DNA of 8,700 bases. Source: a virus. The translations under genes were made by a program, and so were the position numbers. The DNA is taken from the UHGV virus genome UHGV-1440302, one strand, 5' to 3'. How positions within the stretch are numbered: the first letter of the stretch is position 1; every line of letters starts with the position of its first letter. Positions 1 to 8,700 of the stretch are shown piece after piece. The notes below the pieces were generated by a model. It did no database searches. It was given only the letters and a program-made list of their open reading frames with translations, and was not told the DNA's origin.

Positions 1-167
1 CATCCGGCAGTGGTGGTTCAGGTTCTGGCTCCGGTGGTTCATCCGGTAGCGGTGGCTCCGGCTCGGGCTCCGGCGGCTCATCCGGCAGTGGTGGTTCAGG
101 TTCTGGCTCCGGTGGTTCATCCGGTAGCGGCGGTTCAGGTTCAGGCTCCAGTGGCTCATCCGGCGAT
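1..167 (+). repeat. Coding tandem repeat, 39-bp unit encoding GGSSGSGGSGSGS (pIII inter-domain linker)
   Basis: About four imperfect 39-bp units (e.g. ggtggttcatccggtagcggtggctccggctcgggctcc) read in the gIII frame. Confidence 0.9.
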
Positions 168-641
168 AACAATGGCTGGCTTGATGGTGTTTTGGGCTGG
201 TTACAGCGTATTTGGGTTTCAGTGAATGATTTGAATAGTTTCTTTTCTTTTTCTCAGGCTGATGTAAATAACTCACTGAATACTTTTGATGGCCAGCTGT
301 CTGATATTGTTAAAAATGAATCGGGGGATTCATCAAATGATTATGATTCTTTAATCTCTGAGTTTATTGATAAGCTACCTAAGGAGTGGTTATTTATTGA
401 TTTTGACAAGTTGTTTTTTCCTGGTAATCAGCGTTTCGATAAGGCTCAGCCACTTGAGGTTGATTTTTCATTTTCTCTTCCGGTGATTGGGACTGTACAT
501 TTTACAGTTGATACAACCGATTTTTCATCAGCGTATGATTTGTTGTTAAGGCCTGTTCTGGAATATTTTATTTATGCACTTACTGTTCTTCGTCTTTATT
601 TTGTTTATCGCCGCGCCCTGATGCGTCATGCTGAGGTTTAG
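1..641 (+). CDS. gIII: Minor coat/adsorption protein pIII, C-terminal part (5' end beyond window start): Gly/Ser linker then C-terminal membrane-anchor domain
   Basis: Open frame (codons at positions divisible by 3) from position 3 to TAG at 639-641. Encodes GGSSGSGGSGSGS repeats, then ...DNNGWLDGVLGWLQRIWVS... and a hydrophobic C-terminal segment (LLLRPVLEYFIYALTVLRLYFVY). Same frame and repeat as the ORF running off the window end. Lies directly upstream of gVI as in Ff phages. Confidence 0.8.
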   Translation, partial: SGSGGSGSGSGGSSGSGGSGSGSGGSSGSGGSGSGSGGSSGSGGSGSGSSGSSGDNNGWLDGVLGWLQRIWVSVNDLNSFFSFSQADVNNSLNTFDGQLSDIVKNESGDSSNDYDSLISEFIDKLPKEWLFIDFDKLFFPGNQRFDKAQPLEVDFSFSLPVIGTVHFTVDTTDFSSAYDLLLRPVLEYFIYALTVLRLYFVYRRALMRHAEV

Positions 642-3662: not shown

Positions 3663-3760
3663 TCAGTGCGCATAATGTGACACGCGTTATGTTGAAAAGG
3701 CCGCTGCGATACTCTCCACCGCAGCGGCCTTTTTATACATAACGTCATTGTGCGCACTGA
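3663..3760 (+). other. Candidate XerCD-dependent attP: two inverted dif-like sites that can fold into a forked hairpin in the + ssDNA
   Basis: Site 1 (+): AGTGCGCATAA (3665-3675), 11-nt spacer TGTGACACGCG, TTATGTTGAAA (3687-3697); compare recalled E. coli dif GGTGCGCATAA-TGTATA-TTATGTTAAAT. Site 2 inverted (+ 3732-3758, read on - strand): AGTGCGCACAA-TGACG-TTATGTATAAA. Arms are mutually complementary (3665-3675 with 3748-3758, 10 of 11 pairs; 3687-3697 with 3732-3742, 9 of 11) with unequal unpaired centres, capped by a 10-bp GC stem. Confidence 0.7.
3695..3736. terminator. Bidirectional intrinsic-terminator-like hairpin (also the tip of the attP hairpin)
   Basis: Perfect 10-bp stem ggccgctgcg (3699-3708) / cgcagcggcc (3720-3729), 11-nt loop, AAAA on the 5' side and TTTTTA on the 3' side; lies about 90 bp after the gIV stop and downstream of the minus-strand gene cluster. 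Confidence 0.65.
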
Positions 3761-3919: not shown

Positions 3920-3971
3920 ATTGCTTCTAGCAATCTTCGTATCGATAGGTAACTATAATGTTATTTTTTTG
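3918..3971. repeat. Direct repeat copy 1 (~53 bp) covering the stop codon and 3' flank of a minus-strand small ORF
   Basis: atattgcttctagcaatcttcgtatcgataggtaactataatgttatttttttg matches 4446-4502 with about 3 substitutions and 1 indel; contains palindrome TATCGATA and a TATAAT hexamer (+ strand). Confidence 0.85.
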
Positions 3972-4445: not shown

Positions 4446-4502
4446 ATATTGCTTCTTAGGAATCTTCGTATCGATAGGTAACTACTATGTTATTTTTTTT
4501 GG
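4446..4502. repeat. Direct repeat copy 2 (~53 bp) covering the stop codon and 3' flank of a minus-strand small ORF
   Basis: atattgcttcttaggaatcttcgtatcgataggtaactactatgttattttttttgg; see copy 1. The ORF 4490-4672 ends KK-stop at the equivalent position within the repeat. Confidence 0.85.
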
Positions 4503-7557: not shown

Positions 7558-7818
<261 letters not shown>

Positions 7819-7877: not shown

Positions 7878-8700
7878 TTGATTCGTCTTATTTTTCCGCT
7901 TCTGTTTTTGTTCTTTTCTTCGCTTTCTTTTGCTGAGGGGAAAAAAAATCCGGATGAATTTGTTGAGTGTTTTGGCCGTTTATCCTGCAGGACAGCTTAT
8001 TCAGACGCGGGGACATCGATTAAATTAGCCAGGGGAGCAGGTCATGTTTATTGTGGCTGGTCCAGTGTTGATGCATGTTCCGGAATAATTCATTATTGCG
8101 GCGACAATCCTTCAAAGGTTTCTGCCGCACCTTCTACCGTTGGGAATTTTGTTTCTGCCAAATGGCATGCATATAAAGTCTGGGATTTAGACAAGCAAGA
8201 GTGGCAAACCTGCGCCCTTGCTTTTCAGGGAGGTGAGGGTGATTTGACACCTGAATATAATAAGCCGGTTACCGAAGAAAATTGTCTTTCCCGTCCGGTA
8301 ATTAAGGACTTTTCATATTCTCTTGGTGATGTTGTCTGGGTTGATACGGGTAACGGGCAGGAATCTCAGTCCCTGGAAATTAATGGCTGTCGTTATTTGA
8401 TTGATTTTAACGAGTGTGATGACGACGGGAATTGTATCGCTCAGAGTATGCGTTCTGTTGGCGTGGCTGTCGCCAATAAAAATCCTGACGACAATACAGG
8501 GAGTGGCTCTGGTTGTGACGACGACAATTGCGATAATACGACAGGCTCTGGCGGTTCATCCGGCAGTGGTGGCTCCGGCTCGGGTTCCGGCGGCTCATCC
8601 GGCAGTGGTGGTTCAGGTTCTGGCTCCGGTGGTTCATCCGGTAGCGGTGGTTCAGGTTCTGGCTCCGGTGGTTCATCCGGTAGCGGTGGCTCCGGCTCGG
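7878..8700 (+). CDS. gIII: Minor coat/adsorption protein pIII, N-terminal part (signal peptide, Cys-rich receptor-binding domains, start of Gly/Ser linker); 3' end beyond window
   Basis: RBS AGGAG (7866-7870), TTG start at 7878 (no in-frame ATG nearby); hydrophobic signal LIRLIFPLLFLFFSSLSFA; open frame with no stop to position 8700; multiple Cys (CFGRLSC, YCGWSSVDACSGIIHYCG, CRYLIDFNECDDDGNC); enters the GGSSGSGGSGSGS repeats at about 8544. Not in the ORF track because it has no stop in the window. Confidence 0.8.
   Translation, partial: MIRLIFPLLFLFFSSLSFAEGKKNPDEFVECFGRLSCRTAYSDAGTSIKLARGAGHVYCGWSSVDACSGIIHYCGDNPSKVSAAPSTVGNFVSAKWHAYKVWDLDKQEWQTCALAFQGGEGDLTPEYNKPVTEENCLSRPVIKDFSYSLGDVVWVDTGNGQESQSLEINGCRYLIDFNECDDDGNCIAQSMRSVGVAVANKNPDDNTGSGSGCDDDNCDNTTGSGGSSGSGGSGSGSGGSSGSGGSGSGSGGSSGSGGSGSGSGGSSGSGGSGS
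8544..8700 (+). repeat. Coding tandem repeat, 39-bp unit encoding GGSSGSGGSGSGS (pIII linker), continuing beyond the window
   Basis: About four imperfect 39-bp units in the gIII frame, matching units at 1-167. Confidence 0.9.

Follow-up and report, generated by a model that had tools for sequence, protein, structure and literature searches.

A 39-bp coding tandem repeat in the predicted gene III of a temperate filamentous phage of Escherichia coli

The 8,700-nt virus genome UHGV-1440302 (the window, that is, the whole stretch of DNA that was analysed) begins and ends inside a single array of 39-bp repeats, and by far the most probable reading (about 85%, in our estimation) is that this array encodes a disordered Gly/Ser tether of the adsorption protein pIII, the length of which changes by slippage or recombination. 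By analogy with the Ff g3p, such a tether would join a receptor-binding head, composed of an N-terminal beta domain and an N1-like domain of the TolA-binding type, to a C-terminal domain that caps and anchors the virion tip, and would let the head extend and move freely while the phage infects. In DNA made of 13 codons repeated head to tail, the mispairing of slipped strands or an unequal homologous exchange would add or remove whole blocks of 39 or 78 nt in frame; the arrays themselves display this pattern, and it is from the pattern that we infer the mechanism. The mosaic genes and hybrid linkers found among related prophages show, in addition, that the repeats and their conserved flanks serve as crossover points at which N1-plus-linker cassettes and C-terminal domains are re-assorted.

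The array and its units

At the 3′ end of the window (8544-8700, plus strand) TRF detects a period of 39 with 4.0 copies, 86% matches and a score of 195; at the 5′ end (1-164) it detects the same period with 4.2 copies, 81% matches and a score of 230, and this second stretch was also scored as a period of 78 (2.1 copies, 91% matches, score 279). There are no indels at period 39 in either stretch. Both share one long ORF frame and each full unit encodes GSGGSSGSGGSGS, of which the GGSSGSGGSGSGS given in the original prediction is simply a shifted register. A coding tandem repeat of 39 bp had thus been correctly recognized, and its limits (8544-8700 and 1-167) stand except for the last three bases: the array stops at 164 and bases 165-167 (GAT, Asp) are already part of the C-terminal domain. 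The 5′ part of the array (8544..8700) consists of four complete units, a b c d, plus one stray base; its 3′ part (1..164) opens with the final 26 nt of one unit, continues with d, e and f in full and closes on a partial unit g of 21 nt (GSSGSSG). Seven complete units are therefore literally present (four at the end, three at the start) and not the “at least 8” that had been counted across the boundary, a figure which does hold for the closed array described below.

The complete units of the window differ pairwise at 0-9 nt, and third codon positions take all 115 of the 115 pairwise differences among the seven, so the array is not a chance match. Among nine distinct canonical units, 12 of the 13 third codon positions vary and none of the 26 first or second positions does. 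Since the units differ only at synonymous sites, the Gly/Ser composition of the peptide is under strong purifying selection. The free variation of the third positions also means that no second reading frame is constrained in the array. As had been anticipated, artefactual ORFs do occur here: one of 71 aa with a GTG start, read in a different frame of the GC-rich array (10..225, plus strand), and one of 89 aa on the opposite strand (8407..8676, minus strand).

The contig and its closure

The window corresponds to an entire metagenome contig (L005), identical to ENA ERZ652531 NODE_663_length_8700, from a short-read, SPAdes-style assembly. It represents a circularly permuted filamentous phage genome, both ends of which break within the 39-bp array of gene III. 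Simple circular closure is excluded: no suffix of the contig equals its prefix, and a direct end-to-start join keeps the frame but leaves out 12 nt of one unit (GCTCCGGCGGCT). The minimal closure with a single genotype gives an array of 333 nt, or 8.5 units and 111 aa. A sibling contig, L004, which, leaving the array aside, differs from the window at only 2 of 8,379 nt, circularizes by an exact terminal overlap of 247 nt, and this too results in a 333-nt array. The L004 array contains both window ends exactly, window 1-164 being an exact suffix of it once closed, and some 7.7 contiguous units are carried at one end of L004. The unit order of L004 and the window is a b c d e d e f g.

The gene carrying the array

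The array lies in the slot of gene III: the genes follow one another as g8-like, gene III, g6-like, g1 (Zot) and g4 (secretin), the order that would be looked for around pIII. All are on the plus strand. Directly upstream of gene III is the g8-like major coat gene (7558..7818; phrog_2186, virion structural protein), which one annotation calls at 7576-7818, and downstream are the g6-like gene (644-1006; phrog_1944), g1/Zot (1010-2221; Pfam Zot, phrog_1675) and the g4 secretin gene (2383/2398-3606; Pfam Secretin, phrog_1012). The 5′ part of gene III occupies 7878..8700, as judged from the ORF frame and the start candidates, and runs off the contig end; it opens with a TTG preceded by AGGAG, and the same TTG start is used in the RefSeq record of AST205, a genome with related prophages. 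The translation has a pIII-like layout: after a signal peptide (aa 1-19; LIRLIFPLLFLFFSSLSFA followed by EG...) come N-terminal domains rich in Cys, then a single long stretch of Gly/Ser, and last a C-terminal domain that ends in a hydrophobic anchor (...PVLEYFIYALTVLRLYFVYRRALMRHAEV just before the stop). On these sequence grounds the gene appears to be the equivalent of pIII/g3p, the minor coat (adsorption) protein, as originally proposed; its role in adsorption is assigned by homology and by analogy with g3p.

Homology to g3p is seen most clearly at the level of the family. A family profile (alignment A1) matches the g3p N1 structures of IKe, fd and IF1, including the N1-TolA complex, with E-values from 4e-13 to 6e-7 (4eo1, 1fgp, 2g3p, 8b3o, 1tol, 1g3p and 2x9a). 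Relatives match PF05357 (Phage_Coat_A) at 31-44 bits (cut-off 20.8), the N-terminal region of these being ~58% (type B) or ~27-30% (type C) identical to that of the window. The CLSRP motif and four cysteines (C136, C171, C180 and C186) are invariant across the family alignment. In the window the corresponding segment, identified by the family profile and by Foldseek, is a divergent g3p-N1-like domain of the TolA-binding type, the “A” variant (8265..8468, plus strand). The best Foldseek matches of its AF2 model are the g3p N1 domains of IF1 and fd (probability 1.00, TM 0.75, rmsd 2.6 Å, E 0.02); pLDDT is ~85 in this part, for a model that may be biased by the true N1 homologues in its input alignment. 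Taken by itself, the N1-like segment has no Pfam match even at E ≤ 10, its pairwise BLASTP comparison with the type-B N1 is not significant (E = 0.12), and a PDB sequence search with the N-terminal part of the window protein alone gave only matches at chance level. The A variant fails all of the N1 sequence tests.

Ahead of the N1-like domain is a beta-rich N-terminal domain (aa ~20-117, 7935..8228, plus strand, delimited by alignment; AF2 pLDDT 75-90), closed by a short GGEG hinge (8229-8240). It is ~60-83% identical in relatives with other N1 or linker types, and a search with its AF2 model gave no convincing fold match in the PDB; we presume it to be the module that binds the primary receptor. 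Between the N1-like domain and the array the translation shows an acidic, Cys-containing spacer (8469..8543, the KNPDDNTGSGSGCDDDNCDNTT region), which is modelled with low pLDDT.

The C-terminal domain (165..641, 158 aa, with the stop codon at 639-641), defined by translation and alignment, starts with a conserved GWLxxxLGWL and contains a predicted beta-hairpin; at its C-terminal end a hydrophobic helix and the RR after it make up a putative virion/membrane anchor. Pfam and PHROGs searches with both halves of pIII found nothing beyond a weak match of this domain to phrog_17820, a PHROG of unknown function. It has no sequence similarity to the Ff pIII CT, and a profile of seven C-domain types against the PDB, with the f1 pIII cap structures included, gave nothing better than E = 0.5. 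The AF2 model of the domain is unreliable (pLDDT 47), although its succession of a helix, a beta-hairpin and a long terminal helix is like that described for the f1 CT.

Affiliation and integration of the phage

The phage is, to judge from its genes, not a member of the Ff group (M13/fd/f1, genus Inovirus), because its Rep is of the P2 gpA type (PF05840, 167 bits; the G2P-type family stays below threshold), no deposited phage, Lineavirus entries included, has a pI more than 35% identical to its own (30% for f1 protein I), and megablast of the window against 50,697 phage records gave no match. Membership of the UPφ/IKe/I2-2 group is likewise excluded by this low pI identity, by the lack of any match to the intact gene III in a tblastn search of deposited phages and by a different repeat unit; the resemblance to that group is one of behaviour only. 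Scans of the GTDB species-representative genomes with the pIII N-domain and with Rep produced no confirmed relative, and an Rfam scan of the window found no family.

The window does carry a site resembling the XerC arm of dif. Its positions 3665-3678 (AGTGCGCATAATGT) coincide with nt 1-14 of the dif copy of AST205 and match the E. coli dif consensus at 13 of 14 positions; an inverted partner lies at 3731-3758. In AST205 two tandem prophage copies adjoin hipA; the hybrid sites are at 1005 and 9583, and a dif with 1 mismatch is at 18161. Strain 100416 also has two tandem prophage copies. A weaker match among E. coli genomes, NC101, is confined to ~90 nt around the attP region. We conclude that this is a temperate filamentous phage of E. 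coli whose relatives integrate at dif.

Linker length among relatives

In 120 homologous pIII proteins of E. coli the linker ranges from 17 to 161 aa and is built of 13-aa, 5-aa, 9-aa or SSSSG-type units (GGGSS, GGGNS, SGGSSGGST and SSSSG all occur in the same position), so that a linker of the present length is not unusual in the family, contrary to what had been supposed. Length is only loosely constrained; the 5-aa type covers a wide and almost continuous range of 17-112 aa within otherwise similar proteins, with 27-112 aa in proteins from complete chromosomes of ~5 Mb. The variation in copy number predicted for such an array is therefore real for the family as a whole, but for the 13-aa type it is far less evident, since in every complete genome examined that array is nearly fixed at 249-255 nt. 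These lengths are reached by five different unit orders; both tandem copies of AST205, for instance, read a b c d e f g. Six complete genomes, five of which come from five different countries, share one identical allele, WP_050488172.1. Given this uniform length and this shared allele, the 13-aa array type may be fairly stable, and a change in its length is firmly supported only as ~6.5 versus at least 8.5 units.

Could linker length and unit type have been selected to fit the host surface or a co-receptor, with copy number acting as a host-range switch? A longer tether could, for example, carry the N1-like domain past a capsule or O-antigen to TolA. It is true that, of all the genes, variation is greatest in that of pIII and, within it, in the linker, that N1 type and linker type co-segregate, and that the arrival of five unit orders at 249-255 nt could reflect an optimum of length. 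Nevertheless, the range of the 5-aa type in otherwise similar proteins looks like weak constraint, and the naturally longer Gly-rich region of IKe gave no selective advantage, according to the summary by the UPφ authors (PMC7307601). Adaptive tuning is thus an unlikely explanation.

Assembly of the array

The existence of the array might itself be doubted, or at least its length of 8 or more units, if a short-read assembler had created a repeat loop or merged variants. The window is an SPAdes-style contig that breaks in the array at both ends, and its first 55 nt equal 8596-8650. Moreover, a mix of shorter variants in the sample could equally yield its two ends: as we infer from the unit maps, the genotypes a-b-c-d-e-f-g and a-b-d-e-f-g together would do so. 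Since the repeat exceeds the k-mer size of such assemblers, contigs break or may collapse there, and the assembly ambiguity that had been foreseen is plain to see: three sibling contigs end inside the array as the window does, one scaffold has an N-gap at this place and proteins from draft genomes stop there. Some short-read contigs have arrays of 3.5 and 5.5 units, but at k ≤ 63-66 these can be threaded through the array of 8.5 units; they may for this reason be assembler shortcuts or collapses, and we have dropped them as proof of polymorphism. The reconstructed proteins of 491, 465, 452 and 426 aa have no exact match in the protein collection.

Against an artefact, this type of array is uninterrupted, at 249-255 nt, in complete chromosomes and in both copies of a resolved tandem prophage. 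In addition, ~7.7 units are contiguous at one end of L004, which closes by its own exact overlap, and collapse shortens arrays and never lengthens them. For these reasons the existence of the array is secure and an artefact quite improbable, although the precise number of units that this sample carries is not certain.

It is most improbable that the Gly/Ser stretch is a functional repeat domain (adhesive, phase-separating or a substrate for modification) and not a passive tether: the amino-acid sequence of each unit is strictly conserved with synonymous sites near saturation, but Gly and Ser have four-fold codons in which third-position changes are silent, so conserved composition suffices, while a make-up of Gly and Ser only, with low model confidence alongside, fits disorder, and the quite different units in the same position of relatives argue against a sequence-specific function.

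Recombination within gene III

Gene III is mosaic among the prophages. The N and C halves of pIII are found separately, at 99% identity, in different genomes, and in several prophages similarity to the window runs only from 172 round to 8299, leaving out just the N1-A domain and the array. Strain 100416 has a triple-mosaic gene III, one crossover of which falls within the linker, and P0050 and P0051 have hybrid linkers too. Such mosaic genes and hybrid linkers place the crossovers inside or beside the linker. The type of N1 and the type of linker go together, N1-A always being found with 13-aa units and N1-B with 5-aa or 9-aa units.

It is perhaps possible, and we offer it tentatively, that the arrays, along with the invariant stretch coding for CLSRP on their upstream side and that coding for GWLxxxLGWL on their downstream side, are preferred crossover joints of a cassette system. 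If this were true, prophages residing together in tandem at dif would re-assort a co-receptor-binding N1 variant and its matched linker with other N- and C-terminal modules, and the repeat DNA of pIII would, besides encoding a tether, be a portable homology for the shuffling of host range. A connected idea is that N1-A may bind a co-receptor other than TolA.

Comparison with other filamentous phages

The linker units of Ff phages are of 4-5 residues that include Glu, and G2 has ~39 aa. The present array resembles the G1 and G2 linkers of the Ff g3p in being a flexible Gly/Ser-rich repeat between N-terminal domains and a C-terminal anchor, in a gene located between gVIII and gVI, and the N1-type domains are related at the family level. 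The Ff linkers are flexible, are invisible in cryo-EM and have been proposed to give N1-N2 their reach (PMC10175506). Unlike Ff, with its two linkers (N1-G1-N2-G2-CT), this protein has one long linker, placed after the N1-like domain, and a 13-aa unit without charged residues, its length going from 83 to at least 111 aa. The Ff layout, which the original prediction cited for comparison, does not apply to this phage.

One parallel, in behaviour, is UPφ. These enterobacterial filamentous prophages stand in tandem at dif; gene III varies more than any of their other genes, mostly through how many Gly-rich repeats join its N- and C-terminal domains, and it is chiefly by this repeat number that 229 prophages differ (PMC7307601). 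A naturally longer Gly-rich region of gene III is reported for IKe (PMC7307601). UPφ has a 5-aa unit, GGGES, and a genome of ~7.5 kb related to IKe/I2-2 (PMC7307601), whereas the window phage has GSGGSSGSGGSGS (39 nt), a genome of ~8.7 kb, a gpA-type Rep and no close deposited phage. Hybrid linkers and the exchange of N1-plus-linker cassettes were not found in the consulted portion of the UPφ account (PMC7307601). A second parallel, by description, is with YpfΦ, CUS-1 and CTXφ. A review (PMC4266046) presents YpfΦ and CUS-1 as dif-integrating filamentous prophages of 8.7 kb in Y. pestis and E. coli K1, and the likeness extends to the genome size of ~8.7 kb, the modular order, the regulatory genes on the opposite strand, the use of XerCD at dif and tandem copies with an intact dif rebuilt at one end and hybrid sites between them. 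No linker array is described for the receptor-binding protein (puvA) of CUS-1/YpfΦ in the sections of the review that were consulted (PMC4266046).

Variable Gly-rich repeats in gene III have thus already been published for UPφ and IKe; the array is an ordinary one and not a new kind of element, and it leaves the current understanding of pIII unchanged. It does explain why the assembly of this phage yields a contig with both its start and its end in a single gene. Short-read assemblies of E. coli and of gut metagenomes often have a gene III that is truncated or possibly collapsed, and copy numbers taken from such data are not trustworthy without long reads. The array adds a 13-residue, charge-free type of unit to the variable Gly-rich linkers of filamentous-phage adsorption proteins. 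Moreover, the hybrid linker and the triple-mosaic gene III are concrete cases in which modules of the receptor-binding protein have been exchanged among dif-integrating E. coli prophages, an exchange that may shape their host range.

The array-bearing gene and its product

The array ORF of the window lies in the order Rep of the P2 gpA type (PF05840) – 141-aa protein (phrog_30648) – small ORFs – g8-like coat gene – array ORF – g6-like – g1/Zot – g4 secretin – minus-strand regulatory block. It begins at TTG 7878, the same start as in the RefSeq annotation of strain AST205, and its product opens with a signal peptide and a beta-rich N-terminal domain. A GGEG hinge then leads to a Cys-containing domain whose start is an invariant CLSRP motif, and an acidic spacer joins this domain to the Gly/Ser array; the 158-aa C-terminal domain ends in a hydrophobic helix followed by RR. 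The window's own array-ORF sequence has no Pfam match; PF05357 (Phage_Coat_A, the g3p N1 domain) scores above threshold in both type B and type C homologues, whose N-terminal regions are ~58% and ~27-30% identical, respectively. Among solved structures, the family profile matches g3p N1 of IKe, IF1 and fd/M13, the last also in its N1-TolA complex (E = 4e-13 to 6e-7), and the four Cys of the N1-like domain are invariant across the alignment. When the N-terminal part was modelled with AlphaFold2 (mean pLDDT 74, rising to ~85 in the N1-like domain), the structures that Foldseek ranked highest were the g3p N1 domains of IF1 and fd (target-normalised TM 0.75, rmsd 2.6 A, E 0.02, probability 1.00). 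For the C-terminal domain, the profile search detected no sequence relative among solved structures, and the model was too poor for use. We conclude that the array-bearing gene is the pIII/g3p equivalent and that its N1-like domain (8300-8543), which we name N1-A, is a variant that has diverged strongly: CLSRP and the four Cys are retained, but the PF05357 and pairwise tests both fail. Its co-receptor might be other than TolA.

Gly-rich linkers are a feature of Ff g3p. In the window, Tandem Repeats Finder reports a period of 39 without indels both at 8544-8700 (4.0 copies, 86% matches, score 195) and at 1-164 (4.2 copies, 81% matches, score 230), the latter alternatively as a period of 78 (2.1 copies, 91% matches). 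Both halves share the reading frame of the long ORF and translate into repeats of GSGGSSGSGGSGS, which confirms the coding array of the original prediction, whose peptide unit is the same one in a shifted register. Codons in the array are confined to Gly (GGT/GGC) and Ser, and its G+C content is 67%, against 47% in the remaining window. This in-frame repeat specifies a segment of Gly and Ser only between the N1-like head and the C-terminal anchor. By analogy with Ff biology (PMC10175506), the segment would be a disordered tether that gives the head reach.

The window's seven complete units differ pairwise by 0-9 nt, and all of these differences (115/115) are at third codon positions. Across all loci, the nine distinct full units encode an identical peptide, with 12 of the 13 third positions variable and all 26 first and second positions invariant; a Gly-to-Ser change is confined to terminal units. 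Such variation, at third positions only, shows that the composition of the tether has been strongly maintained while its DNA copies diverged. The array does create the expected artefactual ORFs, in another frame at 10-225 (+) and on the opposite strand at 8407-8676 (-). A constrained overlapping gene in another frame of the array is ruled out, since third positions vary freely.

Contig ends and assembly

The window is identical to the contig NODE_663_length_8700_cov_14.87 of ENA ERZ652531 and thus represents an entire metagenome contig from short reads, of a circularly permuted element; at both ends the contig breaks within the array. None of its suffixes matches a prefix; joining end to start keeps the frame and leaves 12 nt of one unit absent. 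The sibling contig L004 (8,959 nt, from a different sample) has an exact terminal overlap of 247 nt, giving a closed size of 8,712 nt and an array of 333 nt (8.5 units, 111 aa). With distinct units lettered, the closed array has the order a b c d e d e f g, of which a b c d stand at the window's end and d e f g, preceded by part of e, at its start. The 157-nt end and the 164-nt start of the window are an exact prefix and suffix of the L004 array, with GCTCCGGCGGCT absent between them. The predicted assembly ambiguity is borne out: four contigs (the window, L004 and the siblings L006 and L007) end inside the array, the scaffold L009 has an N-gap there and draft-genome proteins of 223-240 aa terminate right at it. 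The practical importance of the array is as an assembly hazard.

Linker length among relatives

In a survey of 120 pIII homologues, mostly from E. coli, the linker measures 17-161 aa and is built from several unit types. Linkers of the 5-aa type (GGGSS/GGGNS) span 17-112 aa in many lengths, with steps of 5, those of the 9-aa type (SGGSSGGST) 66-161 aa, and one protein has an SSSSG-type linker of 37 aa. The 13-aa GSGGSSGSGGSGS type measures 21-34 aa among the 120 homologues and 83-111 aa in the complete-genome loci and sibling contigs. When the 5-aa type is restricted to proteins from ~5-Mb chromosomes its range is still 27-112 aa; length polymorphism in the family is therefore robust.

The predicted copy-number variation thus holds for the family at large, but not for the 13-aa type in the complete genomes examined, where length is near-constant (249-255 nt) and unit orders vary. 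Six complete E. coli genomes (L014, L015, L016, L019, L020 and L021) share one identical allele, WP_050488172.1 (469-aa pIII), with a 249-nt array. Five of these genomes come from Japan, Mexico, China, Pakistan and Mali, and the array allele is thus stable in a prophage lineage of wide distribution. The array measures 255 nt in E300010, in 600029 and in each of the two tandem copies of AST205, and the hybrid linker of strain 100416 has 252 nt. Such near-constancy across five unit orders might hint at a length optimum.

Outside the array (8,379 nt), four metagenome contigs have 0-2 substitutions relative to the window. Their arrays as assembled measure 3.5, 3.5, 5.5 and 8.5 units and differ by the clean loss of either whole units or the 78-nt d-e pair. 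The 3.5- and 5.5-unit arrays can be threaded fully through the 8.5-unit array at k <= 63-66, and may therefore be de Bruijn shortcuts. What is firm for the 13-aa type is the contrast between ~6.5 units in complete genomes and at least 8.5 in the window and L004. L006 and L007 come from one metagenome (JGI 3300045988), have 0 and 2 substitutions relative to the window outside the array, and close with 5.5 and 3.5 units in the array; either array length was heterogeneous within the sample or the assembler collapsed the repeats.

Phage lineage and integration

The window phage is not Ff. None of 50,697 deposited phage genomes has a DNA match to it, its pI reaches no more than 35% identity to any of theirs, and only 5 of 5,426 E. 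coli genomes cover at least 80% of the window. Its replication initiator (4766/4787-6787; PF05840, phrog_91) is of the P2 gpA type rather than the Ff pII type, which is unusual beside an otherwise Ff-like morphogenesis module. Close relatives in complete E. coli genomes form two tandem copies adjoining hipA. In the AST205 locus (L001), a hybrid site, AGTGCGCATAATGT followed by GACACG..., occurs at the left end and between the copies (1005 and 9583), and an intact dif with 1 mismatch at the right end (18161). The same hybrid site is found in the window at 3665, within an attP-like structure (3665-3758) in which AGTGCGCATAATGT (the XerC arm of dif) and an inverted partner at 3731-3758 flank a GC-rich hairpin. 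The relatives share the XerCD/dif lifestyle of CTXφ, YpfΦ and CUS-1 (PMC4266046). Two phage-carrying contigs, L010 (3806-7459) and L011 (5472-7420), continue into chromosomal fimbrial usher, fimbrial-subunit and FimH-like genes, the arrangement downstream of dif in AST205. L010 has 0 mismatches to the window phage over 3,514 nt; the window phage therefore also exists integrated in some samples.

Two further features were seen in the window. The segment 2229-2369, between g1/Zot and g4, is an 83-94% match to unannotated DNA of many small E. coli plasmids (1.7-4 kb) and of ~90-kb EHEC-type plasmids; it matches no Rfam family and could be a single-strand initiation or packaging hairpin common to plasmids. 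The minus-strand regulatory region has a 43-nt direct repeat (3928-3970 and 4457-4499, 93% identical, TAGCAATCTTCGTATCGATAGGTAACTA...), possibly operator or promoter duplicates.

Variable linkers and cassette exchange

The window array behaves like the known variable gene III linkers of UPφ and IKe. According to the UPφ study (PMC7307601), the number of Gly-rich repeats in gene III is the main variation among 229 UPφ prophages, variable repeats are also noted in IKe, and the longer natural Gly-rich region of IKe is said to give no advantage. In contrast to UPφ, IKe and Ff, the array of the window has an uncharged 13-aa unit, a different length and a place as the single linker after an N1-like domain, and its phage comes from an E. 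coli lineage that is undeposited, has a gpA-type Rep and includes relatives integrated at dif. Units would be gained or lost through slipped-strand mispairing as the DNA replicates, whether by rolling circle or in the chromosome, or else through unequal exchange, either from unit to unit or between the tandem copies of a prophage.

Array variants differ block-wise, and mosaic breakpoints lie in or beside the array. Its two flanks are found separately, at 99% identity, in different genomes: 13 match only the 5' (N-terminal-side) flank, five (two of these weakly) only the 3' (C-terminal-side) flank, and AST205 alone matches both. In several E. coli prophages the match to the window is continuous from 172, just past the array, round to 8299, at the CLSRP codons; the unmatched stretch (8300-8700 plus 1-171) is N1-A and the array. 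N1-A is always paired with 13-aa units, N1-B with units of 5 or 9 aa. In these sequence comparisons, N1-A and its 13-aa linker behave as a swapped cassette. In strain 100416, gene III is a mosaic of three parts. The first (nt 1-422) has 97.9% identity to strain 600029, the second (nt 423-667) encodes N1-B with 5-aa units, and the third, from nt 668 onward, has 13-aa units and another C-domain type and is 99.0% identical to E300010. These boundaries therefore place one crossover inside the linker, and P0050 and P0051 have further hybrid linkers. The biological interest of the array is modest, and lies in the evidence that it provides for cassette exchange.
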